From the IMG/VR virus record IMGVR_UViG_3300012200_000017, positions 1 through 25,202 of that record: DNA of 25,202 bases; one strand, written 5' to 3'. This stretch comes from a virus. Its lineage: Duplodnaviria > Caudoviricetes. Positions 3 through 24,442 of the stretch are shown piece after piece. The notes beneath the pieces were generated by a model that saw only the letters and a list, made by a program, of their open reading frames with translations, made no database searches and had not been told where the DNA came from. The position numbers and the translations under genes are program-made. Position 1 is the stretch's first letter, and every line of letters begins with the position of its first letter.

Positions 3-938
3 ACTCCGGAAGAATACGTGGCCGCGATGCTCCAGGTATTTCGAGAAGTGTGGCGCGTACTCCGGGACGACGGCACGCTCTGGCTAAACATGGGAGACAG
101 CTACTGTTCTGGGACAGGAACTGAACGCACGCGCGAGACGATGGAGACCGGAACGGAATGCGGGCTTCCGAGAAATTGGTTCGCCGGCGCGAACAAAATC
201 CACCGGAACGGAAAGCCTCCTGGCTGGAAGGAGAAAGACCTGGTGCCGACATCCTGGATGCTGGCGCTGGCGCTGAGGGCCGACGGTTGGTATCTCCGTA
301 GCGACATCATTTGGAGCAAGGGGAATCCCATGCCGGAGACGGTCGAGGACCGGCCAACGAAGGCCCACGAGTACATTTTCCTGCTGAGTAAGAAAAAGAA
401 GTACTACTACAACGCCGAGGCGATCAAGGAAGAGGTCACCGGCGAAGCGCACAGCCGCGGGACAGGCGTGAATCCGAAAGCACAGCCAATTCCCGCAGGT
501 TGGGATACTTCGACGGGCAGCGGCGGCCACGGCAATATCCACAAGGAAGGCAGAAGAAATCAGCGGAATGGCGCCTCCCGTTACAACTCTCCCACGTCTC
601 TAGGACAGGGACGGGTAAAGCAGAACCAGAGTTATTCAGCCGCTGTGAGCGGGCTCCTGCCGATCGGCAGCAAGCGCAACAAGCGAACCATCTGGGAAGT
701 GAGTCCGCAGGCCTTCGAGGGGGCCCACTTCGCCACCTTCCCAGAAGAACTCATCAAGCCCTGCATCCTGGCCGGCTGTCCAGAGGGAGGAATCGTCTTA
801 GACCCTTTTGTGGGGAGTGGTACGACCGAGCTGGTAGCGAGGAACCTGCAATGCCACGCCATCGGACTAGAACTAAACGCCGAGTACATCGAAATCGCAA
901 AAAGGCGTCTCGCGCAAAGCGTGATGACTTTCCAGTGA
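3..938 (+). CDS. Site-specific DNA methyltransferase (N4-C/N6-A, beta class), 5'-truncated by the window edge
   Basis: The frame is open to the window start (TPEEYVAAML...). Motifs: FREVWRVLRDDGTLWLNMGDSY, DIIWSKGNPMPE, HEYIFLLSK, HFATFPEEL and motif I VLDPFVGSGTT. The catalytic PPY motif would lie upstream of the window. Confidence 0.93.
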   Translation, partial: TPEEYVAAMLQVFREVWRVLRDDGTLWLNMGDSYCSGTGTERTRETMETGTECGLPRNWFAGANKIHRNGKPPGWKEKDLVPTSWMLALALRADGWYLRSDIIWSKGNPMPETVEDRPTKAHEYIFLLSKKKKYYYNAEAIKEEVTGEAHSRGTGVNPKAQPIPAGWDTSTGSGGHGNIHKEGRRNQRNGASRYNSPTSLGQGRVKQNQSYSAAVSGLLPIGSKRNKRTIWEVSPQAFEGAHFATFPEELIKPCILAGCPEGGIVLDPFVGSGTTELVARNLQCHAIGLELNAEYIEIAKRRLAQSVMTFQ

Positions 939-1651
939 GCGCTCTGTTCACCCCGCAGAGGCTCATCTACGACCGCCAGATAGCGCGGGAGAACGAGACG
1001 ATGAACCGCATCCGGCAGGGAGCGCAGGGGAAGGACGGTCAGTGGATCCCCGGGCCACTCTGGTGGCTCTGGCACTGCACCGAGACCTTCGACAACCATT
1101 GGCTGGAGAAGGGCTTCTCCGGACCTCACAGGCCGTTTCCGGTCCTTCCGTACTTCAAATGGCTGTTCGCGCGGATGCTCACCAGGCAGATTATGTTTTT
1201 CCCGAAGAGCCGGGAGATGATGCTGTCCTGGTGCGCGATCGGCTATTGCACCTGGTTCTGCCAACTCTTCCCCTCCACGCTGGTCCTGGTGCAATCCCAG
1301 AAGCTTGAGAAGGCCTCAGAACTGGTCAAGGGCAAGGAACCGCCTGGGTACGCCTACGCGCTGTACGACCGGCAGCACGCATGGCTCAAGGAGCGGTTTC
1401 CCCTGGCCATGAGGCCGGAAGACCTGCCGGCAGACAAGCTGGTCTGGGCGAACGGGTCAGCCATTCAGGCGATCGGGCGCGGCGCTGACCAGGTGAGGCT
1501 CTACCATCCCACCATTTACGTGATTGACGAGGCGGCCTTCATGGAGGAAGCTTCTGCGAGTTTTGGCGCGGCGACGCCGGTGGCAAAGCAGATTTTGGTG
1601 GTGTCGTCGGCGGGGCCGGGCTGGTTCGGCGATACGTGCTCGGAGGAGTGA
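935..1651 (+). CDS. Terminase large subunit, N-terminal ATPase half as a stand-alone gene
   Basis: The GTG start overlaps the MTase stop (GTGA). Walker A-like PKSREMMLSW, NGSAIQA, Walker B IYVIDEAAF and coupling motif VVSSA are present. The ORF stops about 12 aa after motif III and has no nuclease domain. Confidence 0.88.
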   Translation: MSALFTPQRLIYDRQIARENETMNRIRQGAQGKDGQWIPGPLWWLWHCTETFDNHWLEKGFSGPHRPFPVLPYFKWLFARMLTRQIMFFPKSREMMLSWCAIGYCTWFCQLFPSTLVLVQSQKLEKASELVKGKEPPGYAYALYDRQHAWLKERFPLAMRPEDLPADKLVWANGSAIQAIGRGADQVRLYHPTIYVIDEAAFMEEASASFGAATPVAKQILVVSSAGPGWFGDTCSEE

Positions 1652-1654
1652 AGA

Positions 1655-1876
1655 GTGCTCCGCTATGAAGGCAAGCTGAAGCGTTCCTTCGACCGCTGGC
1701 TTAGAGATCGGCTACTGGAGTTGACGCCGTATTACATGCGAAGGCTTCCTTTTGACCAGGCTTTCAATGCGGCCTATCGCCGGGTAGGAAGAGAATTGGG
1801 ACTTTCACGCATAGAGATTGTCAGAGGGTTGGTGTGGTTTACAGAGGCCAGACTCAAGTTAGCTCGGAGGAAGTGA
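1655..1876 (+). CDS. Hypothetical basic protein (73 aa)
   Basis: GTG start after GGAGGAG. The stop overlaps the next ATG (TGATG). Confidence 0.6.
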   Translation: MLRYEGKLKRSFDRWLRDRLLELTPYYMRRLPFDQAFNAAYRRVGRELGLSRIEIVRGLVWFTEARLKLARRK

Positions 1877-2235
1877 TGGGTCTCTATGAGTTCAAAGACC
1901 GGTTCGTCCCGTTCATAAAGGCGGGCACGAAGAAACACACGATACGCGCGAAGCGCAAGAAGCACCGAGACAAACCAGGAGACATCTGCCACCTGTACCA
2001 TGGGCTTCGCACGAAGAGAGCGAAACTGATTATGCGGGCGCCGTGCGTGAGGGTGGAGGACATCGTAATCACTCCTGGAGGTATGGTTCGGGTTGCCGGC
2101 CAGTGGCTCGCAGATGACGAGCGCGAAGCCCTTGCACGCAAGGATGGGTTTCCAGACTTCGCTTCGATGATTCAGTTCTGGCGGACGCCTAAGAACCGTC
2201 TGCCCTTCCACGGCGATATCATCCATTGGAAGTGA
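1876..2235 (+). CDS. ASCH/PUA-like domain protein
   Basis: The GxKxxTxR motif (AGTKKHTIR), KPGD and ALARKDGF are typical of phage ASCH proteins. The ATG is coupled to the upstream stop. Confidence 0.8.
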   Translation: MGLYEFKDRFVPFIKAGTKKHTIRAKRKKHRDKPGDICHLYHGLRTKRAKLIMRAPCVRVEDIVITPGGMVRVAGQWLADDEREALARKDGFPDFASMIQFWRTPKNRLPFHGDIIHWK

Positions 2236-2481
2236 CTACGAAGCTTTCGCTGCTTGCGCTCTTGGAGGAGGAAGAGGTTTCAGTGTACCGAGTTCGAGCA
2301 TTTTCTTTCGAAGTGTTCGGCAGGTCTCGATGCGCACCGCTACCGTCCAGCCACGATCAGCCATCACGTGGTTGTGTGCCCCCAGGAGGATATTCCATCG
2401 CTCCAATGGGAACCGCCTTAAGTTGTTGCGCTATCCCAACATCGATTGGTTCAACGCTACGCTCATTATTGGGGTGTGGCA

Positions 2482-2694
2482 ATGGGACGTGGCGAAGTGA
2501 AGACTAGGTGCCGAGTCTGCGGTAAGCCGTTCGCTTCTAAGCTCGAGGAGTCTGCTCTGAAGAAAATAGCTGGAACCGGACGAGCCGAACTACTTTGGAA
2601 CAAGCGCTGCCGTTGTACGGAGCGCGTGCTTTCGGTGTTTACTTCTGGTCCGCTGCCTCCGGACTTACAGTGGTACGACAAGTTCATGCGGTGA
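2482..2694 (+). CDS. Small Cys-containing hypothetical protein, possible zinc finger
   Basis: CRVCGKPF ... CRC. ATG at 2482 after GGGGTG. Confidence 0.5.
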   Translation: MGRGEVKTRCRVCGKPFASKLEESALKKIAGTGRAELLWNKRCRCTERVLSVFTSGPLPPDLQWYDKFMR

Positions 2695-2709
2695 TAGGAT
2701 TCGCGACTA

Positions 2710-3006
2710 GTGGCTGACGCCAGCAGTTTCTTTGCAATCCGAGTAATTCACGCGGACTCAACGTCCTGGAGTCCGATTACCTGCCCCATCTATTGCAACA
2801 CCTTCAGCATCCGTCCAGAAGTGGCAGTCAAAATCCGTACAGACCAAGGGGACGCTTCGACGGAAGACGTTATCGCAGATGGAGTGCAAATCAGTTTTCA
2901 AGTCCCTCACGCCTACCCAGGAAACAGGTTCGGCCCGGGGCAAACTATCGCTTACGTCCAGTCAGTTGGCAGCAGCACAGATGTCCACGTGCAATTCGCA
3001 AGATGA
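2710..3006 (+). CDS. Hypothetical beta-rich protein, possibly a small virion protein
   Basis: 98-aa ORF with a beta-strand pattern. It directly precedes two fibre-like genes and has no signal peptide. Confidence 0.6.
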   Translation: MADASSFFAIRVIHADSTSWSPITCPIYCNTFSIRPEVAVKIRTDQGDASTEDVIADGVQISFQVPHAYPGNRFGPGQTIAYVQSVGSSTDVHVQFAR

Positions 3007-3016
3007 GGAGAACTCT

Positions 3017-3778
3017 ATGAACCGTTATCCGAAAACCGGGGCCAGCTACACTTACGGAAGACCTCCGCGGCGCGATCTATCTTTCCCTAGGTGGCTGGGC
3101 ATTGCCTTCGTGCTGACGGTGGCAGGCTTGGTGTTCTCGTATCCCCTGCGGCCCCAGCAGCAGCAGTCCGGGGGCGCCGGCAGCAGCGTGTCGATCAACG
3201 CAGCTCTACCGACGGGCACCAACGTCATCGGCAAGGTTGGTATCGACCAGACAACTCCTGGAACCACCAACCTCGTGTCGATCGGTTCGACTGGTACAGT
3301 GGGGTTGCTGGCAGGGTCGGCGGTCGTCGGGCACGTCATCAACGATGCGAGTAGCGCGGTCATCGGGCACGTGATAGCGGACTCTGGCTCGACTACTGCG
3401 GTGACGACCCTGCCGGCGCTTGTCGGCGGGACCGCCAACGTCGGCTATACCCGGTCTCTCCCATCTTCCTGTACCCAGTCCACCAATTTCACGAGTAGCA
3501 CGGTTGGCGTGGCCACCGGAGCCGGTACCTCCGTGACGTCGACGACCACCTGCGTGACCCTGGTCTACGTCAACAACATCACCAACTCCGCGGTCACCTT
3601 CCGCCTCCAGGACAAGACTGGGACGCCGATCATCTGGGTGGGCGGCAACGCGGACTTCTCCATCCCTGCAAATTCCAACGTGACTTTTCCCCTCGGTGGG
3701 GTTAGCTTTGCCAGCGGCATTACGGCGATTGCGGGGACCGCATCAGCACTGAATCTCCAGGTCTCCGGAGTGCAGTGA
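3017..3778 (+). CDS. Signal-peptide/anchor-bearing Gly/Ser/Thr-rich fibre- or decoration-like protein
   Basis: RBS GAGGAG precedes ATG 3017. It has a basic n-region, hydrophobic WLGIAFVLTVAGLVF, then PLRP-QQQQ, LPxGTNxIGxV-type repeats and a C-terminal beta-sandwich-like region. Confidence 0.7.
   Translation: MNRYPKTGASYTYGRPPRRDLSFPRWLGIAFVLTVAGLVFSYPLRPQQQQSGGAGSSVSINAALPTGTNVIGKVGIDQTTPGTTNLVSIGSTGTVGLLAGSAVVGHVINDASSAVIGHVIADSGSTTAVTTLPALVGGTANVGYTRSLPSSCTQSTNFTSSTVGVATGAGTSVTSTTTCVTLVYVNNITNSAVTFRLQDKTGTPIIWVGGNADFSIPANSNVTFPLGGVSFASGITAIAGTASALNLQVSGVQ
3320..3376 (+). repeat. Short intragenic tandem duplication encoding SAVVGHVI / SAVIGHVI
   Basis: gcggtcgtcgggcacgtcat and gcggtcatcgggcacgtgat lie 36 nt apart. 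Confidence 0.6.
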
Positions 3779-3785
3779 TCGGACA

Positions 3786-4235
3786 ATGGTGGTTAAAACT
3801 TTACACCCTGCGAAAATCTTAACCCCCCTGTTAATTCTTCTGTGCCTAAGTCTGTCAGCCGACGGGCAGCAGCAACTCTCCGCACCGATTACCAAGTTCA
3901 GTTGCTTCGTTCAGGCAGTCACGGTCACCACGCAATGCCAGGCCGCGCCAGCCGCTGGCCTTCGCGCCTACGTTACAGACTTCGCATTCTCTAACCAGGT
4001 TGCTACCGTCCAAACTCTGGACATCGTATTCGGGACTGGAACCAACTGCGCGACAGGGACAACCGCACTCACTCACAAGTTCCAGATGGGGACTGTTGCT
4101 ACAACCACCAGTCCTCAGTCGATCGTGGCGGACCTGAACTCGCCATTGATTCCCACGGCCGCTAACGCCATCTGTGTACGTCCTAGCGCGGCCACGGCCT
4201 TCGGTGCGACCCTAACGGGATATACTGCTCCCTAG
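3786..4235 (+). CDS. Secreted small beta-sandwich-like protein (signal peptide, 4 Cys in the mature part)
   Basis: Signal peptide KILTPLLILLCLSLSADG-QQQL followed by a Thr/Ala-rich mature region. Confidence 0.7.
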   Translation: MVVKTLHPAKILTPLLILLCLSLSADGQQQLSAPITKFSCFVQAVTVTTQCQAAPAAGLRAYVTDFAFSNQVATVQTLDIVFGTGTNCATGTTALTHKFQMGTVATTTSPQSIVADLNSPLIPTAANAICVRPSAATAFGATLTGYTAP

Positions 4236-4242
4236 AGGACCA

Positions 4243-4578
4243 ATGCCAGTACTGACTCATAAGCCTGGAGTTCTCTTCACAGAAATCTCTGCTGCTGGTT
4301 TCCAGATCATCAGCGCTCTTTGCAGAGCTGCGGTCATCATCGGGGAGGACATGGAAATCACTTCCGCCTGTGATGGCGAGCACTCTGGGCCGGAAGATCC
4401 CCACCACCTGGGAAAGGCTTACGACGTGAGGACACACGGTCTACGCGACAAACACCTGGCGCTGGCAACCATTAAGTCGCTGATCGACTACAACAAGTTT
4501 TTCGCGTGGATTGAGGACGAGGACACGCCGAACGAGCACATTCACATCCAACTTCGGCATGGAATGGTCTATCCGTGA
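4243..4578 (+). CDS. Peptidase M15 / Hedgehog-DD-peptidase-fold zinc peptidase, endolysin candidate
   Basis: ITS motif, H-x6-D (HHLGKAYD) and HxH (EHIHIQ). RBS GAGG. Confidence 0.8.
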   Translation: MPVLTHKPGVLFTEISAAGFQIISALCRAAVIIGEDMEITSACDGEHSGPEDPHHLGKAYDVRTHGLRDKHLALATIKSLIDYNKFFAWIEDEDTPNEHIHIQLRHGMVYP

Positions 4579-4919
4579 CGCCGATTCCGAGCCAGGCTCT
4601 GGTAGACACGCTCAACCTGTTCAAGCGGGACTGGGACTCGGACGTTTGTCCGGTTTGCAGGAAGTGTAAATGGGGAAACTCGCCGTTCTGCCGATCGTGC
4701 TCGATCAAGATACAACGCATCAGGATGATGCGAGGTTTCCAAACTTGGATAGGGTTCCCACTTTCACACAACTTCAACTTTTTCAAGAGGCAGGAGCGGA
4801 ATGGCTATAAGAAAGCTGTGTATGCTTGGCTGACATGGTACGACCGCTGCCGAGACTACCTAGGGACGAGGCGTCGCTTTGGAATTCAAACTTTTCGGGA
4901 CTCCGCAGTTCCACGATGA
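4575..4919 (+). CDS. Zinc-finger hypothetical protein
   Basis: CPVC...CRSC. GTGA overlap with the upstream stop. Confidence 0.6.
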   Translation: MTPIPSQALVDTLNLFKRDWDSDVCPVCRKCKWGNSPFCRSCSIKIQRIRMMRGFQTWIGFPLSHNFNFFKRQERNGYKKAVYAWLTWYDRCRDYLGTRRRFGIQTFRDSAVPR

Positions 4920-5493
4920 AGCATGGTACGAGAACCGCGAGGCCGCGGACCACATCCACGAGCCCCTCCACCGGATACGCCTACTCGAATCCCTCAAGCT
5001 CATCTACCACATCATCGAACGGGAAGACCTCGAGCTGACAACCCTAGCCGACTGGGGCGCCGGCAACGGTGGGCTCCTCTCCGAGTTCGGCAGAAACTCC
5101 CACAACATGAAGTTCTGGGGTTACGATCTTTGCCCGAAGAACGTGGCTTACGGCAACGAGCACTACCACGTGGACCTGAAGTTGATGAACATAGTCGAAG
5201 GAGACCCGATTCCCGCGGACATCGTTGTGCTGACGGAGTTGCTCGAGCACCTGCTCAGTCCTCACGACTTACTCGACAGGCTTTTACATCCGGAGCCACA
5301 AACCAGGTGGATTGTTGCCAGCACGCCAGGCTTTGAGGACTTCCAAAACCATTACGAGTATCACCTGTGGGCCTGGACGGGCGAGAGTTTCGCGCAGATG
5401 TTCACTCGCGCCGGCTGGATCGTGAAGCGCCACTTCATCCGCGCTGAGGCCGGCACGCAATTCGTTGTAGCCATGAATCCGGAGCTGCTATGA
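4879..5493 (+). CDS. Class I SAM-dependent methyltransferase (small-molecule/sugar type)
   Basis: Motif I ADWGAGNGGLL, GYDL, DIVVLTELLEHL and ASTP. TTG start after GAGG. Confidence 0.85.
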   Translation: MEFKLFGTPQFHDEAWYENREAADHIHEPLHRIRLLESLKLIYHIIEREDLELTTLADWGAGNGGLLSEFGRNSHNMKFWGYDLCPKNVAYGNEHYHVDLKLMNIVEGDPIPADIVVLTELLEHLLSPHDLLDRLLHPEPQTRWIVASTPGFEDFQNHYEYHLWAWTGESFAQMFTRAGWIVKRHFIRAEAGTQFVVAMNPELL

Positions 5494-5861
5494 CCAAGAA
5501 AAAGAAAAAAGTTCGGCCCGCCACGCGGTCAACACGGAATGTCTCTGGCGTAGAAGTCCGAGCCCTTGCCCACGCAGCCATCGAGGATTGCCACGCTGGT
5601 TATATCTTCACTGCGACTCTCGACAACGTTCTTGTGGAGCACAGTCCTGTTGGCGTAAACGTGCACATCGAGGAAATTGGATTTCCGGGGCAAGCCTGGG
5701 TTTACGACACAATCCTGTTGAGAGCGTTCCAGGATGTCAGGATGAAGATTCGAGAGAAATTGGCCTGCGGGGCCTACGGCGCACAGACTGAATTGGTGCG
5801 AAGGATGATTGGAGAACCGGAACTGGCAGCACAGCAACAGCCCTCCCAAAGCGTCAACTGA
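5490..5861 (+). CDS. Hypothetical protein with a Lys-rich N-terminus
   Basis: ATGA overlap upstream, TGATG overlap downstream, RBS GGAG. Confidence 0.65.
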   Translation: MTKKKKKVRPATRSTRNVSGVEVRALAHAAIEDCHAGYIFTATLDNVLVEHSPVGVNVHIEEIGFPGQAWVYDTILLRAFQDVRMKIREKLACGAYGAQTELVRRMIGEPELAAQQQPSQSVN

Positions 5862-5959
5862 TGGAACAGCTCCTAGTTTCGGTAGGTTCGGTGGTACTCG
5901 CTGTCCTGGTGGTGGTTGCTGTACGTTTCGTATTTAGGAAGCGCAAAGACGATGAATGA
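5861..5959 (+). CDS. Small single-TM protein (32 aa), not in the ORF track
   Basis: Manual translation: MEQLLVSVGSVVLAVLVVVAVRFVFRKRKDDE. The ATG is coupled to the upstream TGA. Confidence 0.6.
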   Translation: MEQLLVSVGSVVLAVLVVVAVRFVFRKRKDDE

Positions 5960-6092
5960 CCAACTCTGGGCGCTGACCTTCTCCATCATGCTGGCAATCT
6001 GTGTGCTGGCTAAAGCGATCTTCTGGCTGCTCTGCCGTTTCAAAGTCCTGCGGGAATTCTTTGCCAGGGTAGATGCGTGGCTAGACAAATAA
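5952..6092 (+). CDS. Small single-TM protein (46 aa), not in the ORF track
   Basis: Manual translation: MNDQLWALTFSIMLAICVLAKAIFWLLCRFKVLREFFARVDAWLDK. It overlaps both neighbours. Confidence 0.55.
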   Translation: MNDQLWALTFSIMLAICVLAKAIFWLLCRFKVLREFFARVDAWLDK

Positions 6093-7081
6093 CGCTCAAA
6101 GAAGTTCGGCAGCCGCTTGGTGAAGAGCCCGAGACTCCAAAAGGGTGCGAACAATGGATCGAGGAGCACGGTTACGACATTTTCAAGGTGCACTGGTCGG
6201 CGGACCCTTCGAAGACGACGGCATGGGCGGAAGCACAGAAGAAGAAGAGTCCTTCCGAGAACACCTACCGGAGAGAGTTCGAGATAGACCATTACGCTGG
6301 ATCTGGCGCGGCGATGTATCCGGAGTTCTTGAAAGCTCTCCACGTCTGCAAACCATTCCCCATCCCGCACGAGTGGACTCGCTACATGGCGATCGACCCG
6401 CACAAGCGCCGGCCTCACGCCTTCCTGTGGATGGCAGTGTCTCCAGACGGAGACCATTGGTACTACCGCGAGTATTGGCCTTCGCGCATCTATGGCAAAA
6501 AGGGAGACACCCCGGAAGACGACCGCTTGTACAAAGTGGATGAGTACGTCGAGGCTATCAAGTTCATGGAAGGCCCCACGGTCAAGCATTTCTCCCCGGG
6601 TGGCTTTGCGGACAATGGTGGGAGGGAAGAGAAGATTCGCCTGCGCGTGATGGACACGCACGGCAAGGCCATCTTCACCACGACGACTGCCGGCAAGGAT
6701 GAGCCAGAAACCTTCTGGGACCGATATGAGAAGTTAGGAATCCGCTGCAAGGAGGCGATCAAAGACGTTGGCAGTGGACGAGATACCGTAGGGATGCGGT
6801 TACGACCGCGGCGGGTGATGCTGGCGAACGAGGAGAAGCAGGAAGCGGTCATCCACATCTTCGATACGCTTCCAGAACTAATTCACGAGATGCGAACGGT
6901 ACGCTGGCCGAGCCTCACGCCGGCGCAAGCTGAGAAGATGGACCCGGTGGACAAGGTGATGCAGAAGCGCTGCCACGAAACGGACTTGATTCGCTACATC
7001 GAAATGGAGGACCCTACCTATCTAGAACCAAACCAGAGAATTAAAAGTGTCAGACAGCTCGAAAGTGGGATAAGTTATTGA
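6077..7081 (+). CDS. Terminase large subunit, C-terminal half (lid plus RNase H-like nuclease) as a stand-alone gene
   Basis: KVHWSADP...YRREFEID...MYPEF...HVCKPFPIPHEWTRYMAIDP, YYREYW, VMDT and HETDLIRY match the TerL nuclease pattern. It lies directly upstream of the portal. Confidence 0.88.
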   Translation: MARQITLKEVRQPLGEEPETPKGCEQWIEEHGYDIFKVHWSADPSKTTAWAEAQKKKSPSENTYRREFEIDHYAGSGAAMYPEFLKALHVCKPFPIPHEWTRYMAIDPHKRRPHAFLWMAVSPDGDHWYYREYWPSRIYGKKGDTPEDDRLYKVDEYVEAIKFMEGPTVKHFSPGGFADNGGREEKIRLRVMDTHGKAIFTTTTAGKDEPETFWDRYEKLGIRCKEAIKDVGSGRDTVGMRLRPRRVMLANEEKQEAVIHIFDTLPELIHEMRTVRWPSLTPAQAEKMDPVDKVMQKRCHETDLIRYIEMEDPTYLEPNQRIKSVRQLESGISY

Positions 7082-7084
7082 GCC

Positions 7085-9286
7085 ATGGCGACCACTGGAC
7101 CAGGTTTTGTCGGCCTCGGTAGCCGGATGTCGGATGCAGAACGGCACAAGGTCGAGCAGACCAGAGAGCGCATCCGCGCAAGCTCGAACTGGCTCCATGA
7201 CAACTTCTGGGGTGAGTGGCAAGAAGCCTTCCGCTCTTACGAAGTCCGCACCGAAGACCTGAAGTATCCCAAAGGACATCCACAAGCCGGCCAGGAAGAC
7301 AAGACACGCACCAACGTGGCTATGCCTGAGATGTTTATAGGCGTCCGCAAGAAGGCAGCACGCAAGGCCAGACGGCCGCCTTCGATCAAGGTTCGCGCGG
7401 AGAGTGACGAAGTAGGCGAGATGATGTCGAAGATGGCCACCTACCAGTGGGACCGCGCCAACGAGCAGCGCTATCAGCGGCGCCACGTCCTCCAGGGCGA
7501 TCTTCTGGGCATTTCCCTCAAGGTGCATTACTACGACCAGGTGAGCCAGCAACGCACGCTGCGATACAGCACCGACAAAATCCTGAACGACCTCTACGTC
7601 AAGATCGACGAGCACGATAAGACGCGGAACAACTGGCTGACCGCGGATGATGACGAGCAGGGCGCCGTAAAAGTCAGCACCATGAACGCCGAAATGCAGG
7701 GCAACGTTCTGGCGCAGCTCGGTCCAGAAGTTACCCAACAAAAGAATTTCACGCGGTTCGACGGTCCAGTGTCTGAGTGGAAGTTCATAGGAGACTGGTA
7801 TCCCGAGCCGGAGTTTGACTCCATCCACACAGCCGCTTGGAACATTTTCGAAGGGATCAAGGATGCCGAATGGCTGGCCTACTGGGCAAGCCAGGAGTAT
7901 ACGGACCCGAACACTGGGGAGAAGAAACCGGTTATCGACCCGAAGTTCCTCGACGAGTTGGAAGAGTACCGTCCTCTCGATACGATGAACAAGAGCGAGG
8001 TGTCCGGAGCTGATCGCGACTTCAAGCAAACCCTCCGCGACGTTATCTTCAAGTCTCGTCCTGTATTCCACGCCCGGCTTATCCCTGTCCGGCGCTACCT
8101 CATCCACACCGATTACACCTTCAGAAAAGGGCTTTGCTGGATCCGCTTTATCGGGAACGAGAAAGTTTTCCTCGGTGAGATGCCGTTGCCGTGGGACCTC
8201 GGAGGCCGGTATCCGATCAGCTCTTATACCCCGATGCCTTCGCTGCTCCATGGGATTGGCGATTCGACCGCGCGGAAGGGGCGGCACCTGTGGAAACTGC
8301 ACAACGTCACCGTGTCTCAGCGCACCGACCTCGTGACCAACGCGCTGAAGAAGCTAATCGCCTTGCCGAAGGGCGCGGACGTTCCCAACGAAGTCATGGA
8401 CCTGGGGCTGTTCCGCGTGGTGTTGAGCGACTACCACAAGGAAATCCTCGCCGCGTTTGCCGCGCCTGGGACGACGATTCCTCCGGCTGCCTTTGAGACG
8501 GAATCTCAGGTCATGCGGATGCTCCAAATGCTTGAGCCGGCCATCATCGACTTCGGAGAGCAGAGCCAGGCGGTTCCGAATACCGGGAAGACTGCCACGC
8601 TCGGGATGCTGCAGCAGCGGTCCGCCGACGTTATCAGCGGAGACGAGTTGGAATGTCTGAACGATGCGATCGGGGAAGAGACCGACATTAAGCTGGCGAT
8701 GTGGCAGCAGGTGATAACTGATCGCGAGCTTGAGAAGATGCAGCAGTGGACCCCCAAGAACGACAAAGCGTTCTGGACGCTCACCGGAGGCGGCGGCCCA
8801 AGCAACCCGCGGAAGTCCTTCAGCGATCCCCTCGAGCTGCAAGAGGACTTTGAGGTGTTCCCGGAGTTGGGGTCTACGCTGGCGCTAGACGACGCCATGA
8901 AGAAGCAGCAGGCGCAGGAAATCTACGACCGCGCCATCCAGGCACCGCAAGTTTGGGACGTTATGGAGGCCGCCAAGAGGCTGGCCACAGCTTCCGGAGT
9001 GTCTAATCCAGAAGAGTTGCTGGCTAAGCCGATGCCGCCCCCAGTGCCACCACCGCAGGAGCCGCGTGTCAGTGGTACGGTCTCGGTGAAGGTCGAGGCC
9101 AACGCTATGCAGTCCGATGAGTTACTGACCAAGGTCTTCCAGATCAGTCCGTCCCCGCCTGCCGAGACGGAACTGCGGAACCTGCACGATCACACTAAGA
9201 TGGCCGAGGAGTCCGCCAGGTCGGCAAAGTATCTCGCGGAAGGTGACCCGGAGGAGCAACCACAGCCGCAACCAGTGGGGCAATAA
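7085..9286 (+). CDS. Portal protein (P22/podovirus-like, 733 aa)
   Basis: Size and position after TerL. Segments PMPSLLHGIG, LHNVTVSQRTD and KTAT, plus a Pro/Gln-rich C-terminal tail, are typical of P22-like portals. Confidence 0.85.
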   Translation: MATTGPGFVGLGSRMSDAERHKVEQTRERIRASSNWLHDNFWGEWQEAFRSYEVRTEDLKYPKGHPQAGQEDKTRTNVAMPEMFIGVRKKAARKARRPPSIKVRAESDEVGEMMSKMATYQWDRANEQRYQRRHVLQGDLLGISLKVHYYDQVSQQRTLRYSTDKILNDLYVKIDEHDKTRNNWLTADDDEQGAVKVSTMNAEMQGNVLAQLGPEVTQQKNFTRFDGPVSEWKFIGDWYPEPEFDSIHTAAWNIFEGIKDAEWLAYWASQEYTDPNTGEKKPVIDPKFLDELEEYRPLDTMNKSEVSGADRDFKQTLRDVIFKSRPVFHARLIPVRRYLIHTDYTFRKGLCWIRFIGNEKVFLGEMPLPWDLGGRYPISSYTPMPSLLHGIGDSTARKGRHLWKLHNVTVSQRTDLVTNALKKLIALPKGADVPNEVMDLGLFRVVLSDYHKEILAAFAAPGTTIPPAAFETESQVMRMLQMLEPAIIDFGEQSQAVPNTGKTATLGMLQQRSADVISGDELECLNDAIGEETDIKLAMWQQVITDRELEKMQQWTPKNDKAFWTLTGGGGPSNPRKSFSDPLELQEDFEVFPELGSTLALDDAMKKQQAQEIYDRAIQAPQVWDVMEAAKRLATASGVSNPEELLAKPMPPPVPPPQEPRVSGTVSVKVEANAMQSDELLTKVFQISPSPPAETELRNLHDHTKMAEESARSAKYLAEGDPEEQPQPQPVGQ

Positions 9287-9991: not shown

Positions 9992-10010
9992 GTGCTTGTT
10001 TGCTTGCTTT

Positions 10011-11165
10011 ATGAAGATAGCTGTCATTTTCTGCGGAGCTGTAACGGCGGGCTGGAGCGCTGGCGATGGTCTCGCCAATGCCTTCAGAAAAGCCGGGCAT
10101 CAGATTCTTCCAATCGCACGCAGCCGGCACGATTGCCCCAACCTGACAGTCCAATCTTTAAACATGGCTGACGCGATCATTGTCAGCGGTCCCGAACACA
10201 TCTTCCGGAGCCACGTCAAAGGCGAACCTCCCAACGGCTACTCCCTGGCAGAGAATGAACTCACCATCTACGAGTGGAAGCACGAAGTAAAACCTCCCAA
10301 AATCTTCATGTACCACGAGTCCAACCACCGCGAGGACCAGACCTTCGGTTTTGAGGACTACCTGAGCCTCGGTGACTACCACTTCTTTCCGGCCGTCCAG
10401 GATGCGGAGACCTACGACCAGGAGCACTTCGCCAAGGGCCGATCGTTCTATTTGCCGTTTGGTGTAGACACCGACGTCTTCAAGCCGCTGAGTTGTCCGC
10501 GCTGCACGTGTGGGCTCAAAGGTTTTGGTCCAGGCAGAATCTCTCCAGTCACCGGCCTCTCTGGCTTCAGTGTCCAGGAACTGCAAGACGGCAAGCTGTG
10601 TCCTACCTGCTTAGGCTCTGGCATCGTTCGCAGCCCGAAGGATATCGACGCCGGATTCATCGGGTTGATCTATCCCAAGCGCAATCAATTCCTGCACAGC
10701 CTGTCGCAGCACATGAAGCAGGGACGCGACCCCTGGCTGGTCATTGGCAATGTCCAAGTTTTGGACATGGACGGTCCAGCGTGGACCGATCAAGCCCTGC
10801 GCCTGGCTATGAACTACCGGCGCATCAAGGTGTTTCTGAATCTCCCGGCCTACTCAGAACTCTTGGTAAGCAAGGTGGTGGAGATTATGGCTTGCGGGAC
10901 ATTCATCGTCACGCCAGCGTTGAGCGGTGCAGCGGAGGCTAACTGCGATATCTTCCAGCACGCCAAAGAACTAGCCTACTACCATCCCACCAACCTGCCG
11001 TTCCTGGTTCAGACGGTGCGGGAATTCGTCGAGCGCGACGACATGCGCGAGAGAATTGCCATGGCCGGTATGTCCAAGGTGGTCGAGAAGTACGCGCTGA
11101 AGGTCCAGGTGAAGCAGATTTTGGAGCAATGCAAGCTCGGAATGGCGAAAGAGGTAATCCAATGA
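10011..11165 (+). CDS. GT-B glycosyltransferase (Glyco_trans_1_2 / CgeB-like) with a Cys-rich insertion
   Basis: YLPFGVDTDVFKP, DAGFIGLIYPKR, YRRIKVFLNL, KVVEIMACGTFIVT and RERIAMAG. Confidence 0.85.
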   Translation: MKIAVIFCGAVTAGWSAGDGLANAFRKAGHQILPIARSRHDCPNLTVQSLNMADAIIVSGPEHIFRSHVKGEPPNGYSLAENELTIYEWKHEVKPPKIFMYHESNHREDQTFGFEDYLSLGDYHFFPAVQDAETYDQEHFAKGRSFYLPFGVDTDVFKPLSCPRCTCGLKGFGPGRISPVTGLSGFSVQELQDGKLCPTCLGSGIVRSPKDIDAGFIGLIYPKRNQFLHSLSQHMKQGRDPWLVIGNVQVLDMDGPAWTDQALRLAMNYRRIKVFLNLPAYSELLVSKVVEIMACGTFIVTPALSGAAEANCDIFQHAKELAYYHPTNLPFLVQTVREFVERDDMRERIAMAGMSKVVEKYALKVQVKQILEQCKLGMAKEVIQ

Positions 11166-11782
11166 AGGAAGCGTACCCGCTGGCCTGGCCGGATGGCTGG
11201 ATCCGGACCAGGATTGACCAGCGCAAGGGCAATGCCCAATGGAAGAAGTTGGCAAACGAATCCCGCGAGGCGCTGATTAAGGAGTTGGAGCGTATGGGCG
11301 TCGAGGGAATGCTCATCTCCACGAACATCCCGGTAAAGCTCGGTGGAGCGCTCCAGTCGGTCCAGGAACCGCGCGACCCTGGCGTTGCGGTCTACTTCTC
11401 TCGGAAGTTGAAGGAGGACTACTCCTGGCAGGATATTCTTGGCATCAACGACCCGGCGCCGTCACACGATATGATCGACCGCGCGTACCGCGAGAAAGCC
11501 CGGCTGCACCATCCGGACTCTGGCGGTGACATGGAAACCTTCAAGATGATTACGACTGCCCGCGATCGAGCGAAGGCCTGGGTGAACATGCGGGAGAACC
11601 AGGAACACCAATACGTGATTGCCTGCGACCAGTTCAAAGAGGTGCGGCACAACATCACAGCCATCCGGTTGACCATCGCGGCGATTCGCCAGATGGAACG
11701 CTGTGGAACGTCCTCACTGCTCGAGCGAGCCTTCAAGGGGTTCGAAGCGATCACGGAGGTGGCCGGTGCCAAAACTGCTTGA
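11162..11782 (+). CDS. Phage J-domain (DnaJ-like) protein
   Basis: YPLAWPDGWIRT, ISTN and DPGVAVYF. J-domain ILGI...AYREKARLHHPDSGG with the HPD motif. ATGA overlap. Confidence 0.85.
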   Translation: MKEAYPLAWPDGWIRTRIDQRKGNAQWKKLANESREALIKELERMGVEGMLISTNIPVKLGGALQSVQEPRDPGVAVYFSRKLKEDYSWQDILGINDPAPSHDMIDRAYREKARLHHPDSGGDMETFKMITTARDRAKAWVNMRENQEHQYVIACDQFKEVRHNITAIRLTIAAIRQMERCGTSSLLERAFKGFEAITEVAGAKTA

Positions 11783-12245
11783 GATGGGTGAACCGAGCGA
11801 GTTAGACCTCCTACGCCGGCGCGTCGAAGAGCTGGAAGACGAACTACGCATCGAGCGCCTCAAGGTCGAGGAGGTACGGCAAAGGTCAGTGGCTTCCGGC
11901 CGGGCGCTGGCGCGGCTGCGGTCCTACCTGCAACCCTGGCACATGGCGCTGAAGGAAGTTTTCGGTGAACTCGACGGCGCCGGGATTGAGGAAGGGACTA
12001 GTACCCCGGTGATGACGAGCATTTCTCAGCCAGTCAGCGCAGCGGCCTATGATGCTTGGAAAGCTCGTCTGACGCCAAGCTGTGGCCGCGTCATCGATGC
12101 ATTGTTGGTCCAGCCGTTGAACCTGACGCAGATGTCCACGATCTGCAAGATGAACTACTACACAGCGAGGAATTCTATAGTCCTGATGCAGAAGAACGGA
12201 CTTATCGAGCGGGAAGGCAATTCCTTCAGGTTGAAGAGGCTGTGA
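11766..12245 (+). CDS. Coiled-coil plus C-terminal winged-HTH protein, putative regulator
   Basis: GGAGGT precedes GTG 11766 (alternative ATG at 11784). Heptads LRRRVEELEDELR and wHTH-like VIDALLVQPLNLTQMS...MQKNGLIEREGNSFRL. Confidence 0.65.
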   Translation: MPKLLEMGEPSELDLLRRRVEELEDELRIERLKVEEVRQRSVASGRALARLRSYLQPWHMALKEVFGELDGAGIEEGTSTPVMTSISQPVSAAAYDAWKARLTPSCGRVIDALLVQPLNLTQMSTICKMNYYTARNSIVLMQKNGLIEREGNSFRLKRL

Positions 12246-12595
12246 TGCTGAATCGTTGGCTCTGGCTCCTGCTCATTGTGACGCGCCTTCGTGATCGGCT
12301 GCGGTGCCCGAACTGCAAAGCGGTCGGCACGTACAAACTCCACGCGCCAGAACCGCGGTGGCGCTGGCTCTGTAAGTACTGCGGCTACTATCGGGACAAA
12401 GACAGAACGACTTGGTGTGTACCTTCACCGACATTTGGTTGTTGGATATTCGAGGACCAAGAAACTGGATTCAAAGGTAGAACGCCGCTGCTGATGCTAC
12501 GTGAGGGCGCCGCCGAAGACAGCAAGCAAGCATTCTTCGCAGAGCAGCGTCCAGATGAGCACAGGTTGTACGCTGTGTGGCCGTGGAGGGGATGA
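12245..12595 (+). CDS. Zinc-ribbon protein
   Basis: CPNC...CKYC. TGATG coupling. Confidence 0.6.
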   Translation: MLNRWLWLLLIVTRLRDRLRCPNCKAVGTYKLHAPEPRWRWLCKYCGYYRDKDRTTWCVPSPTFGCWIFEDQETGFKGRTPLLMLREGAAEDSKQAFFAEQRPDEHRLYAVWPWRG

Positions 12596-12801
12596 TGAAC
12601 CGTTGCAAACTAATTTCTCCGACCAACCTCATGCTCGAACGTCCGATATTGTCTCCAGTCGAGGAAGTAGAATTCTTCGTCATTGGCACGAAGGAGTACG
12701 GTCGCTTGCGGAAGCAGAATGTGGCTGTAGGTTTTTTGTGTGGTGGGTTTTTCTTTCTTTGCATCGTGCTTCTAATCAAGATTTGGCGAGGAGCCCTATG
12801 A
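12592..12801 (+). CDS. Small membrane protein with a C-terminal TM helix
   Basis: GGAGGG RBS and VAVGFLCGGFFFLCIVLLIKIW. ATGA overlaps at both ends. Confidence 0.6.
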   Translation: MMNRCKLISPTNLMLERPILSPVEEVEFFVIGTKEYGRLRKQNVAVGFLCGGFFFLCIVLLIKIWRGAL

Positions 12802-13679
12802 CAACTGCGCTGGTCCTGGGAGGCGCCGGATTTATCGGCAGCCACCTAATCCCAAAACTCCTTGAGCGCGGCTACGACGTCCATTCGGTGGACCCGCGGC
12901 ACCATGTCCTTGAGACGAAGTTCGGTAATTCCAAACTGCGCTTCGAAGAGTGGATTAGGGGAGCATTTGCACAGAAGAAGTACGATTACGTGTTTCACCT
13001 CGCGGCCTACCTGACACAATTCGACATCAGCCAGCGGAACCATCTGGGGATGTCAGCGTTCTGGGACACCCAGTTAGACTTCCACGTTGCGGCATATCTG
13101 GAACTGAACCCTCCGCTGGAACGGGTTGTCTGGATGTCTTCCGCTGCGACGGATGCCAAGGACACCGAGAACTACGCTTTCGTGAAGTACGTGTCGGAGC
13201 GCTTCGCGCGTTGGCTCGGAAAGCAGAAGGTTCCGGTGGCCATCCTCAAGCCTTACGCCGGCTATGGGCCCGGGCAAAGCCTGTACTACCCCATGCCGGC
13301 CATCATCGACCGAGCGCTTCGCCGTGATGACCCTCTAGCAATCTGGGGAAACTTGAACACCGTGCGCGATTGGATCTACATCGACGACCTCGTGGAGGCA
13401 GTCCTCATGGCCGCGGATGGTAAGTTCCCTTCTGGAGCTGCTATCCCGATCGGAACTGGCGTTGGAACGACCTTCGCAGGTCTGGCGAAACTGATTGCTC
13501 ATCTGGTTGGATATGAGCCGGTTATCCAGGCCGACACGAGTAAGCCGGTCGGCGGGATGTACCGTGTGGCGCTCACCGGAATCTCTAAGGAGTTTGGCTT
13601 CGAAACCAAGGTGACGCTCGAGGAAGGCGTCCAGAAGTGCATCGCGGACGCCAGGAAGGGCTTCGCCAAAGGAGCGTGA
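12798..13679 (+). CDS. NAD-dependent NDP-sugar epimerase/dehydratase (extended SDR)
   Basis: GGAGFIGSHL, VFHLAA, MSS, YxxxK (YAFVK), YGPG and RDWIYIDDLV. RBS GAGGAG. Confidence 0.92.
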   Translation: MTTALVLGGAGFIGSHLIPKLLERGYDVHSVDPRHHVLETKFGNSKLRFEEWIRGAFAQKKYDYVFHLAAYLTQFDISQRNHLGMSAFWDTQLDFHVAAYLELNPPLERVVWMSSAATDAKDTENYAFVKYVSERFARWLGKQKVPVAILKPYAGYGPGQSLYYPMPAIIDRALRRDDPLAIWGNLNTVRDWIYIDDLVEAVLMAADGKFPSGAAIPIGTGVGTTFAGLAKLIAHLVGYEPVIQADTSKPVGGMYRVALTGISKEFGFETKVTLEEGVQKCIADARKGFAKGA

Positions 13680-13680
13680 G

Positions 13681-13944
13681 ATGACAGCAGGACCAGGAAC
13701 AGCAGCATCTTCAGACCATGGCGAGTTTAGCCACCACATCTACATGGCGAACGACAGAACAACCATCCTCCGCGATGGCAAGAAGAGCAGAGTTGTAATC
13801 AACGGAGCGAGGAAAGAAGTTCGCATTGGCTGTACCACGGTCTCCTTTGACGCTTGCCAACGAATATACGCCTTGATGAGGCGGCATGAAGACGCGGTAA
13901 CCTACGTGGCTCAAAGGGAGAGCGATGGTTTATCCACTGTCTGA
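13681..13944 (+). CDS. Hypothetical protein (87 aa)
   Basis: AGGAG upstream. It fills the operon gap. Confidence 0.5.
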   Translation: MTAGPGTAASSDHGEFSHHIYMANDRTTILRDGKKSRVVINGARKEVRIGCTTVSFDACQRIYALMRRHEDAVTYVAQRESDGLSTV

Positions 13945-14338
13945 GATCTTCGACCGGTTGACGATCGAGACGCGCAAGGCGCAGTACGGCGCAAAGAACT
14001 ATGAATTACGTCAGAACTACGTCCGAGCCATTGCGGATAAGTGCGGGCTGTTCATGGCCAACGTAATCGTGGCCGCGATCGAGTTGACGGTTGCTAATGT
14101 GGACATCGCCAATCTCGAATGGGCCATCCGGACGAACAAAGAACTCTCTCCTTCGGAGGTCGGACGCCGGGCTATCGTCATCCGCAAGATCAATGAGGCC
14201 AGAATTGACGCCAAGGTGCACCTGGCCGGGTATCTCGGGGAAGTGCTGGACCCGAAACGCTACGACCATAAGGAGCGTTTCACCTCAATTCTTCAGCCAC
14301 CAGGGAAAAAACGTGCAAAGACTCCACGACCTAAATAG
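13925..14338 (+). CDS. Helical protein resembling the DUF6165 family
   Basis: The pattern LSEIFDRLTI...N..I..LE..IR...IRKINEARIDAK recalls that family by eye. RBS GGGAG. Confidence 0.55.
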   Translation: MVYPLSEIFDRLTIETRKAQYGAKNYELRQNYVRAIADKCGLFMANVIVAAIELTVANVDIANLEWAIRTNKELSPSEVGRRAIVIRKINEARIDAKVHLAGYLGEVLDPKRYDHKERFTSILQPPGKKRAKTPRPK

Positions 14339-22221: not shown

Positions 22222-23523
22222 ATGAACAAGTTTCTGGAAAGTAGGTTTTTCTGGGTGGTCGGCTTTGCGGTGATCGTCCTCGCGTTCATGTTCTGTCCCG
22301 CGCATTTTGCGGCCATGACCATGTTCGCGTTTGGACTCGTATCCACCGCCAGGTCCACCAACGAAGCAATCTCTGAGACCGTACTCGTTCGCGATGTTCC
22401 GGATGAAGTCATGGTCTTGGACGGCGACATCACGCCTCTGACGGTCATGTCGGTAAACGCCAAACGTAAGAGAGCGTGTTTCAGTCCGCGCATTGAGAAG
22501 TTCGAGGACGACCTCCGGACGCTGTGGGGCTTTATGAACGCGGCGGCGGTCTCTTCGGCGGTCACCAACATTCTGGTGAACGACGGCACGCTGTTCGCCG
22601 TGGGCGATTTGCTTTGTGCCCCTCAGACGATGAGCGTAAGCACCGCCGACGAAGTGATGCGCGTCACGGCGATCGCCACGAACACCCTTACGGTAACCCG
22701 CGGAGTTGGCGGAAGTGGAGCCGACACTTTGGTCACCTCGCAGTCGCTGAGAATCATGGGCAGCGCCTACGCGGAAAACGCGGCATACGGAACGCCTCGC
22801 AGCACTTCGAAGACCACCATTCTCTCGTACACGCAAATTATCCGCGAGCCATTCGTGCTTTCGGAGACGATGCGTGCCTCGAAGACTTACGGTGGGCCGG
22901 AAGAGGACTACCAGGAACGTATGGCGCTTCTGAACTGGAAGAAGCAGTCGGAAGCCATGGCACTGTGGGGGCGTAAGTCTGAAACGCTGGCGGGCCCGGG
23001 CACCATCCGGACGACCATGGGTTTCAAGCCGCGCGTCACCACCAACGTCACCGATGCGGTCACCACGCTGACGTTGACGCTATTCAACACGTTCGGGCAG
23101 ACCGCCTTCCGATACAACCAGGGCCGGCCAAGGCTGTTCATTGCCGCGCCGATCTACATTTCCGGCATCAACTTCTTCTCACAGAACAAACTTCTTACCG
23201 AGGTCGGGCAAACGGTGTTTGGCGTTAAGGTGAAAACACTGTATTTGCCGCACGGTACGCTGATGCTGGCGAATAACTTCCTGCTGGAGGCCGGTATCTC
23301 CGGTCAGTCTGGCTATGAGGATGAAGCCTATGCGGTGGACCTTGCCAACGTGGAGTACCGCTACCTCAGCGCCAACGGAGTGAACCGCGATGTGAAGCTG
23401 TACCGCGACGTGAAGAAGGACGGTACGGACGGCCAATCCCATGAGTACAAAGGGGAGATCGGCTGGATATTCACCCAGGAGAAGAGCCACAGCCGGATGT
23501 ACGACGCCAAGGCATACGGCTAG
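22222..23523 (+). CDS. Major capsid protein (HK97 fold, SU10-MCP/DUF5309-like) with a hydrophobic N-terminal leader
   Basis: TPL, EKFED, SYTQII...LSET, EAMALWG, RTTMG, FGVKV and GEIG, plus the insertion domain EVMRVTAIATNTLTVTRG. It follows the scaffold and precedes a terminator. Confidence 0.87.
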   Translation: MNKFLESRFFWVVGFAVIVLAFMFCPAHFAAMTMFAFGLVSTARSTNEAISETVLVRDVPDEVMVLDGDITPLTVMSVNAKRKRACFSPRIEKFEDDLRTLWGFMNAAAVSSAVTNILVNDGTLFAVGDLLCAPQTMSVSTADEVMRVTAIATNTLTVTRGVGGSGADTLVTSQSLRIMGSAYAENAAYGTPRSTSKTTILSYTQIIREPFVLSETMRASKTYGGPEEDYQERMALLNWKKQSEAMALWGRKSETLAGPGTIRTTMGFKPRVTTNVTDAVTTLTLTLFNTFGQTAFRYNQGRPRLFIAAPIYISGINFFSQNKLLTEVGQTVFGVKVKTLYLPHGTLMLANNFLLEAGISGQSGYEDEAYAVDLANVEYRYLSANGVNRDVKLYRDVKKDGTDGQSHEYKGEIGWIFTQEKSHSRMYDAKAYG

Positions 23524-24103: not shown

Positions 24104-24442
24104 ATGCCGTTCTACACCTGGAAGTGTTCCGACGGTCATGTGACCGAAAAGTTCCGCACCATCTCAAAACTCACAGAGACGGTGCAATGCTCCTTCAATA
24201 ACCCGCGTTGCAGAAAGAAGGCTCACCTCTTCCTGCAGACGGCGCCGGGCAATTCCAACCCGAATCGCATCTGGTTAGGTTCCGAAGTCCACGGCAAGAG
24301 AGTGAACTCCGACGAGGTGCGGCAAGATATCGAGGATGCCTGCTTGAAAGAAGAGCACCCAACCATCCCGAAGGATACGCTCGAGGCGATCGAGAAAACG
24401 CGGCTAGGCGTCAATCGAAAGGCGGCGGGCTTTGCGAATTGA
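24104..24442 (+). CDS. FmdB-like zinc-ribbon protein
   Basis: The start MPFYTWKCSDGH...QC....RC matches the MPxYxYxC pattern. Confidence 0.7.
   Translation: MPFYTWKCSDGHVTEKFRTISKLTETVQCSFNNPRCRKKAHLFLQTAPGNSNPNRIWLGSEVHGKRVNSDEVRQDIEDACLKEEHPTIPKDTLEAIEKTRLGVNRKAAGFAN

Follow-up and report, generated by a model that had tools for sequence, protein, structure and literature searches.

A conserved large terminase encoded by two separate genes in uncultured phages

Results

Gene organization of the locus

We analysed a 25,202-base stretch of viral DNA (IMG/VR record IMGVR_UViG_3300012200_000017, positions 1 to 25,202; hereafter the window) in which the large terminase (TerL) is encoded by two separate genes, one for most of the ATPase (chain 1) and one for the remaining part together with the nuclease (chain 2; Table 1). 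The open reading frame (ORF) of chain 1 starts with GTG, encodes 238 amino acids and stops with TGA (1649-1651); its start overlaps the stop of an upstream methyltransferase gene by 4 bases. The chain 2 ORF also starts with GTG, encodes 334 amino acids and overlaps a preceding 46-amino-acid ORF by 16 bases, while a 733-amino-acid gene begins 3 bases past its end. Between the two halves lie 4,425 bases with 12-13 ORFs on the same strand, mostly abutting, according to our own gene calls. An earlier reading of this DNA from its letters alone (the sequence-only reading) had described both ORFs as intact, each overlapping its upstream gene, and the coordinates, starts and stops bear this out. The evidence given below indicates that the two-gene terminase is real, selected and widespread in uncultured phages. 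We estimate at roughly 0.84 the probability that the large terminase is made here from two separate conserved genes whose proteins, as the structure models predict, reassemble non-covalently into one motor subunit.

Table 1. Position of the main features in the window and of two related islands (prefixed coordinates).
Feature	Position	Strand	Basis or remark
DNA methyltransferase gene	18..938	+	Pfam N6_N4_Mtase, E 4.6e-44; overlaps the ATPase start
Large terminase chain 1: ATPase subdomain I to the helix after motif III	935..1651	+	Fold, conservation, alignment to one-chain P0156
Deviant Walker A (residues 89-99)	1200..1232		Family pattern K-[ST]-R-x-x-x-x-[ST]-W
Cargo block of 12-13 small genes	1655..6092	+	Pfam and PHROGs scans, comparison with relatives
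Cys-rich ORF in the gap	4575..4919	+	Common to the gaps of the nearest relatives
S-adenosylmethionine (SAM) methyltransferase in the gap	4879..5493	+
Two short hydrophobic ORFs in the gap	5861..5959, 5952..6092	+
Large terminase chain 2: arm, hairpin, lid segment, hinge, RNase H-like nuclease	6077..7081	+	Fold, alignment to P0156, predicted interface, conservation
Likely portal gene	7085..9286	+	Same cluster as the gene that follows the nuclease half in 24 of 35 dispersed loci
Major capsid gene	22222..23523	+	Pfam SU10_MCP, E 8.8e-30
G008 island (L097, L149)	G008:C17:547730-563058		15.3 kb, 48-bp tRNA-end repeats
L095 island	L095:5253-20375		15.1 kb, 46-bp tRNA-end repeats

The two products are parts of a large terminase

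The model of chain 1 (predicted local distance difference test, pLDDT, of 95) matched residues 101-303 of T4 gp17 (PDB 3cpe) with a Z score of 20.5 and a root-mean-square deviation (rmsd) of 2.5 over 195 aligned residues. For chain 2 (pLDDT 82.5), residues 76-313 matched the TerL of D6E (5oeb; Z 20.3, rmsd 2.3, 181 aligned) and residues 78-316 matched gp17 361-562 (Z 13.0). The terminase identity of both halves is settled by these folds. Profile libraries barely detect them: neither chain gave a terminase family match in Pfam or NCBIfam, and their PHROGs matches were weak (E 0.007 for chain 1, 0.004 for chain 2). Sequence searches of the PDB with single halves returned nothing useful and an alignment-based search matched gp17 with an E value of 0.0015. 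None of 50,697 cultured phage records matched the ATPase half; 23 weak matches to the nuclease half were obtained, and the 20 listed were all annotated as terminase.

By fold and catalytic residues the window pair is a large terminase. In 51 chain 1 sequences, the glutamate of Walker B (IDE, D198/E199) was invariant, D198 and the motif III serines S224/S225 were at least 90% conserved, and the Walker A arginine R93 was invariant. The sequence-only reading had placed all three motifs in chain 1; Walker B and motif III stand, but the Walker A lacks the canonical Gly-Lys. Its P-loop K91-S-R93-E-M-M-L-S98-W aligns to T4 SRQLGKT, and the deviant family pattern was found in 87 of the 88 rows of the tree set described below, fused proteins included (one fused row gave no match). 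Because fused relatives have it too, the missing Gly-Lys is a family trait and not decay; the shifted lysine of the family P-loop may replace the canonical one. According to the available part of PMC6379665, lambda TerL also has a deviant Walker A, KSA-R79-VGYS, with a comparably shifted lysine, so that a missing Gly-Lys does not exclude membership among the large terminases.

Chain 2 consists of an N-terminal arm (residues 1-22 or so), a beta-hairpin with strand 33-40, a lid segment with E67 and E69, a hinge and the nuclease (76-316). Over 33 sequences E67 and the nuclease acids D107, D193 and D303 were invariant. In T4 gp17 the C-terminal part of subdomain II is given as 314-353 and the hinge as 354-364 (PMC3074133, available part), and chain 2 residues ~23-77 would correspond to gp17 304-360. 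In the models, the cut lies inside the ATPase domain; the fold matches and the predicted interface place the last strand of the ATPase as well as the lid beyond it, in agreement with the earlier proposal of a break ahead of the lid-completing segment.

The cut falls at one loop throughout the family

In a search with a length limit we found 151 relatives for chain 1 and 43 for chain 2, the latter including one-chain proteins. On the one-chain relative P0156 (577 amino acids), chain 1 covers residues 26-237 at 49% identity and chain 2 covers 249-577 at 46%, with an 11-residue gap between the halves and no overlap, which is the collinear coverage of a full-length TerL that the sequence-only reading had expected. 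Viral loci were then compared: from 86 fetched, 3 repeats and 6 with one half on short contigs were removed, and the remaining 77 together with the window made a set of 78 (loci, not independent genomes). Both halves were present in all of them, dispersed in 43 (gap 1.2-5.6 kb), adjacent in 34 (counting L014, whose gap is 308 bases) and fused in 1, with the cut at one loop; the dispersed and adjacent loci are the anticipated relatives with the same breakpoint. Gap lengths in this set occupied all three frames, and a start codon stood just upstream of the conserved chain 2 segment in most loci. When the search was made without length restriction, 120 representative proteins reached the end of the ATPase model. 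Among these, 84 stopped within 30 residues (some may be contig-edge fragments), 27 ran on into the nuclease and 9 carried other tails. The length of the cut-site loop in fused relatives ranged from ~10 to ~90 residues, and this variation marks it as a permissive site. The locus of one close relative looks rearranged (L170:2346-3083 and 5191-6093): it has both halves, the nuclease half being upstream, on the opposite strand and apparently shortened.

An intact TerL elsewhere in the genome had been named as an observation that would overturn the two-gene interpretation. No other terminase was found in three complete relatives, where 4 of 114 ORFs of at least 180 amino acids matched TerL families and all four were halves, in a scan that detected 4 of the 6 halves present; the window record itself is 41% complete. 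Each of 26 records gave one ATPase match, and so did the record of the window. A search of 26 relatives with Pfam Terminase_6N returned 0 matches but missed the family's own halves as well, and is uninformative.

The two chains are predicted to form a complex

The complex of chain 1 and chain 2 was predicted with a score of 0.90, as compared with 0.00 for the best of 3 controls; 116 of 157 solved complexes attained the mark set for this score, as did 2 of 215 mismatched pairs. Runs agreed in at least 93% of contacts and partner pLDDT was at least 80. The predicted interface, with 143-146 confident contacts, sits on the Walker A strand. Its best contacts are those between strand 86-92 of chain 1, the strand running into Walker A, and strand 33-40 of chain 2. 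In the model, chain 1 is also touched by the lid (residues 65-76) and the arm (4-24) of chain 2; nothing in P0156 corresponds to the arm, which is perhaps a clasp gained in addition. Two-chain modelling, suggested beforehand as a check, thus yielded a confident complex, to which likeness to solved terminases may contribute. This prediction shows that the old contacts are still compatible and is not a proof of chain binding.

Selection and phylogeny of the two halves

Ratios of nonsynonymous to synonymous substitution (dN/dS) were estimated by the crude NG86 method and are rough, dS often exceeding 1 (saturation). Pairs including the window gave 0.13 and 0.21 for chain 1, and 0.06, 0.10 and 0.11 for chain 2. 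All computable pairs were at or below 0.22, indicating purifying selection on each half; the dN/dS check had been proposed with the sequence-only reading, and its outcome favours that reading. The phylogeny is based on 88 rows, 35 of them dispersed, 26 adjacent and 27 fused. Left out were 13 near-duplicates, the loci L042, L050 and L083, which are truncated or frameshifted, and 8 fused proteins of partial length. The trees of chain 1 and chain 2 agreed in their main clades. The patristic distances of the two halves were correlated, with a Spearman coefficient of 0.82 for the 35 dispersed rows (p 0.001) and 0.85 for the adjacent ones; this is evidence of linkage, not of co-evolution. The congruent trees and the lack of overlapping coverage speak against an origin of the halves from different TerL clades.

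The split or fused state requires 6 changes on either tree. A single origin of all split forms was rejected by the approximately unbiased (AU) test (p 8e-28, 61 versus 27 rows) on a quick tree made without a mixture model and containing long branches. A single origin of the dispersed forms was not rejected (p 0.53), and we do not claim two origins. In the chain 2 tree, three fused proteins are among the rows nearest to the window (98% support). Because the trees are unrooted, fission and re-fusion cannot be distinguished. The earlier proposal of a stable gene fission giving a two-chain motor is supported as regards the motor, but what it took for an event in this genome is a trait of a family with fused, adjacent and dispersed members.

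A similar picture could arise from misassembly, from decay of the gene or from two terminase fragments without relation to each other. No single public contig covers the whole stretch, which is spread over two contigs overlapping by 22 bases at 3252-3273, and the two public runs in which it is completely present, both of them soil metagenomes, are possibly the window's source. However, the contig break falls within a cargo gene and leaves both terminase junctions unaffected. In these two runs each junction lies inside one contig with 0 differences, so that the assembly check proposed with the sequence-only reading came out in its favour. The same arrangement recurs in 42 other loci, under purifying selection and with congruent trees, and an artefact or a relic of this kind is scarcely credible.

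The DNA between the halves

A very improbable alternative is that RNA splicing, trans-splicing or a split intein restores a single chain from the two halves. Split-intein terminases are known (PMC2677866, available part), and chain 1 ends three residues past a nearly invariant Cys. This Cys is, however, present in a fused relative too; moreover, the tail after it has only 3 residues and the unaligned start of chain 2 has 22, which leaves no room for intein halves, and no intein family match was obtained. Within 700-7400, where group I and II introns were looked for, there was no Rfam match at E<=1, and a DNA joint from 1651 to 6077 was not found in 4 DNA contig sets. The gap is wholly coding and differs among relatives, and its lengths in all three frames and the start codon that most loci have before the conserved chain 2 segment also speak against rejoining. 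On these sequence grounds, splicing or intein routes appear unlikely.

The gene content of the gap varied among the relatives of the window. No transposase, homing endonuclease or intein family was found among 11 ORFs scanned with Pfam and PHROGs (a 31-amino-acid ORF at 5861 was outside the scan), and for these 11 the earlier description of the gap is confirmed. Loci L004 and L010 have identical ATPases and gaps of 1,646 and 1,199 bases, respectively, which indicates that the cargo changes faster than the terminase genes. An HNH/AP2-like gene (L005:9501-10001; Pfam AP2 E 0.008, HNH being our own reading) lies directly before the nuclease half. A homing endonuclease was considered as the cause of the split and rejected: the HNH/AP2-like gene occurs in L004 and L011 and is absent from L010, which has the identical ATPase. 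It looks like late cargo.

Two other observations concern the cargo. In the window, a 111-amino-acid ORF at 4243-4578 has a His/Asp/His pattern and no family match. The pattern is peptidase M15-like, and this ORF and the hydrophobic ORFs at 5861-6092 are possibly lysis genes located in the gap. In 21 of 36 dispersed loci (L015, L016, L029, L030, L034, L026, L039 and others), the gap encodes 1-4 small basic proteins of differing sequence with a common C-terminal motif, F-[YF]-G-E, absent from the window; the motif is possibly a C-terminal sorting or capsid-loading signal.

Genes flanking the terminase

The methyltransferase gene upstream of chain 1 probably starts beyond the contig edge. The likely portal gene had no family match of its own in Pfam or PHROGs; one of its relatives matched the portal family phrog_1216 (E 2.4e-05). 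The nuclease half adjoins this portal-like gene in 24 of 35 dispersed loci; of the other 11, the fetched DNA of 10 lacked a complete long ORF there and 1 showed a different gene. In the clade of adjacent splits (L038, L062 and others) the family portal does not follow the nuclease half, and two loci share a secreted or tail-like gene there. In the complete relative G024, a gene of the small terminase (TerS) family directly precedes the ATPase half (phrog_51, E 1.2e-29). As the major capsid gene is present, the window represents a phage head module and not a satellite. Scans for promoters and terminators gave chance levels (1 versus 2.0 and 4 versus 6.1). Genes for glycosyltransferases, a nucleotide-sugar epimerase, a methyltransferase and a J-domain protein were seen within the head module at 9996-14936 and 24432-25202, that is between the portal and capsid genes and beyond the capsid gene, and virion glycosylation is possible.

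ATPase halves in Acidobacteriota genomes

All 13 matches in bacterial genomes were to Acidobacteriota assemblies, which makes this group the likely host; phages with this two-gene terminase thus likely infect Acidobacteriota. Among the 13, L093 is fused and L098 is a dispersed split with portal. A class-wide sample gave matches in 26 of 401 genomes, mostly weak and perhaps to other terminases. In 8 of 12 Acidobacteriota genomes (incomplete assemblies) the nuclease half was not found. A broader profile detected none at E<0.1 in 16 ATPase-only loci, and a single-protein search of 5 island genomes, run without a positive control, gave no match. From metagenomes, 65 of 80 loci had the ATPase half alone, 57 of which have less than 6 kb downstream and are uninformative.

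Two of the bacterial loci are islands bounded by tRNA-end repeats (Table 1). Both carry an integrase and, directly before a chain 1 ending at the family break, a likely small terminase gene. The G008 island also encodes a single-stranded DNA-binding protein (SSB) and a primase (phrog_1156, E 2.6e-103); no primase-replicase was among the scanned ORFs of L095. At the small terminase position DUF5681 matches were obtained for L095 and L096, which we read as TerS by inference; weak TerS matches were found for L089, L091, L100 and L154 (E 0.0006-0.01) and none for L097. The family portal profile gave no match in the islands; the capsid scan covered part of the ORFs, and four long G008 ORFs are unannotated. 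Comparable pairs of a likely TerS and an ATPase half adjoin integrases in L096, L152 and L154; in L089, L091, L094, L100, L150 and L153 they are surrounded by host genes.

The solo ATPase copies have intact motifs and dN/dS values of 0.065-0.13 where computable, L101 and L155 being frameshifted. On the tree, 12 of them require at least 6 changes: 4 fall in the large dispersed clade, 7 in the window clade beside fused proteins and 1 on a long branch. The fused neighbours of the 7 count against simple borrowing from a split helper. Adjacent splits (L175, L176, L219) are among the closest metagenome matches, and these are outside the tree. Window-clade ATPase halves also occur among host genes in L159 and L167 (69% and 77% identical), with no nuclease half in the 5.8 and 10 kb downstream, respectively.

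We tentatively suggest that the islands are satellites which bring their own TerS and chain 1 and rely on a helper for chain 2, portal and capsid, the hybrid motor packaging island DNA. The island ATPase chain would dock on the helper's lid-nuclease chain by strand complementation. Alternatively, the ATPase-only islands may be inhibitors that poison the helper's ring, or their ATPase halves may be selected relics. If the satellite proposal is true, the split makes the packaging motor modular and satellites hijack it through half a large terminase. The beginning of the island ORF L097:4833-5756 looks, by eye, like the gene that a related prophage has between portal and capsid (L156:10155-11306, likely scaffold); the product of the island ORF could be a capsid-size redirection protein.

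Discussion

We propose that the two chains act as one motor subunit. Strand 33-40 of chain 2 would pair with strand 86-92 of chain 1 and complete the RecA-like sheet, residues 65-76 would supply the lid and the N-terminal arm would wrap chain 1. In PMC6379665 (available part), the Walker A arginine and a glutamate of the lid, R162 and E351 in T4, are proposed to form an 'arginine toggle'; by position, a cross-chain toggle could involve R93 of chain 1 and E67 or E69 of chain 2. As lid, hinge and nuclease stay on one chain, the signalling track that would couple ATP turnover to DNA movement and cutting remains covalent and intact, and the break would therefore cost little. Assembled into the usual ring, such heterodimers would then sit on the portal together with a small terminase. 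Once cut, the gap would be a tolerated insertion site, filled by changing accessory genes.

Several points weigh against this reading. The TerL-family scan of the complete relatives had low sensitivity; the window record lacks a small terminase gene and, at its level of completeness, may hold a further terminase in the missing part. The P-loop is without Gly-Lys, and the ATPase activity of the whole family is a predicted one. The complex score may stem from likeness to solved one-chain terminases. Finally, ATPase halves that are under selection in host genomes devoid of a detected nuclease half also fit a role of chain 1 alone. The rival reading is a division of labour without a stable heterodimer, chain 1 alone forming the translocating ring and chain 2 joining only for cutting. 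The intact motifs and low dN/dS of the stand-alone copies and the confident model of chain 1 by itself speak for it. However, chain 1 is devoid of the equivalent of gp17 304-360, i.e. the last strand, lid and hinge; the large predicted interface sits on the Walker A strand, and the same loop is broken in every state of the family. We consider such a division of labour rather unlikely and favour the two-chain motor subunit.

The value of this family is that fused, adjacent and dispersed versions are all cut at one loop, with lid and hinge on the nuclease chain. It reveals which covalent link is dispensable and allows ATPase cores to be swapped against lid-nuclease chains. ATPase control of the terminase nuclease is described as a long-standing question in a 2026 review (PMC13595956), which, in its available part, treats the enzyme as two domains plus linker and does not use the word 'split'. 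Since neither half matches Pfam or NCBIfam terminase models, such phages would likely be missed or called broken in virus catalogues. With the ATPase-only islands, the split may also have an ecological use.

The window pair shares with one-chain large terminases (T4 gp17, 3cpe; D6E, 5oeb; P22 gp2 nuclease, 4dkw) both folds, Walker B, motif III, the Walker A arginine, the RNase H acids and the position before the portal. It differs from them by its two genes 4.4 kb apart, the cut inside the ATPase and the P-loop.

The papers compared in the following were available in part, and statements on them are limited to those parts. The sequence-only reading had TerL as normally a single polypeptide, introns and inteins being the familiar breaks; this is too narrow, as ATPase and nuclease of Arthrobacter cluster AY phages, across this phage group, are two consecutive genes (BillyTP gp2/gp3, BlueShadow 2/3; PMC11920828, PMC12820723). 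The BillyTP proteins (359 and 198 amino acids), however, belong to the phrog_9 family and do not match the window-family profiles, and the first nuclease Asp is at residue 15 of the second gene versus 107 here. The cut is at the hinge in cluster AY with the genes consecutive, whereas in the window it lies inside the ATPase with the halves dispersed. In another case, a fractured terminase in two genes with other DNA between them is rejoined by a split intein (PMC2677866), that is by protein trans-splicing, whereas the window has no intein parts. Assignment of the window pair to the cluster AY or intein kind was set aside on the basis of family, cut site and the lack of intein matches; the intron kind appears unlikely in view of the lack of Rfam matches at E<=1. 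PMC7302621 and PMC8601537 contain no split terminase in their available parts, and our literature searches, in a collection with few subscription papers, returned no terminase whose halves lie kilobases apart after a break within the ATPase.

The islands resemble phage-inducible chromosomal islands (PICIs) and PICI-like elements (PLE) in the integrase, the attachment-site repeats, the primase of the G008 island and a size of ~10-15 kb, probably in a small terminase, and possibly in redirecting or blocking the helper's motor. PICIs carry TerS alone and capsid-forming PICIs (cfPICIs) a whole TerL (PMC10085698), and Gpi of PLE blocks the helper TerL (bioRxiv 2024.04.22.590561). The islands differ from PICIs and cfPICIs in carrying a likely TerS plus exactly chain 1, and literature searches found no paper on ATPase-only terminase islands or on hijack via half a TerL. 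Two-gene terminases as such are already in print; what is new here is the ATPase-only islands bounded by attachment sites in Acidobacteriota.

The best functional analogy is provided by the genes-in-pieces of T4-like phages (Aeh1 nrdA, gp43A/gp43B, T4 genes 39/60), in which a coding region is split by an insertion and two polypeptides reassemble without splicing (PMC2988022). Those are not terminases and, unlike them, the window has a gap with multi-gene cargo and no homing endonuclease. By this analogy, the two-chain terminase most likely works like a genes-in-pieces enzyme.

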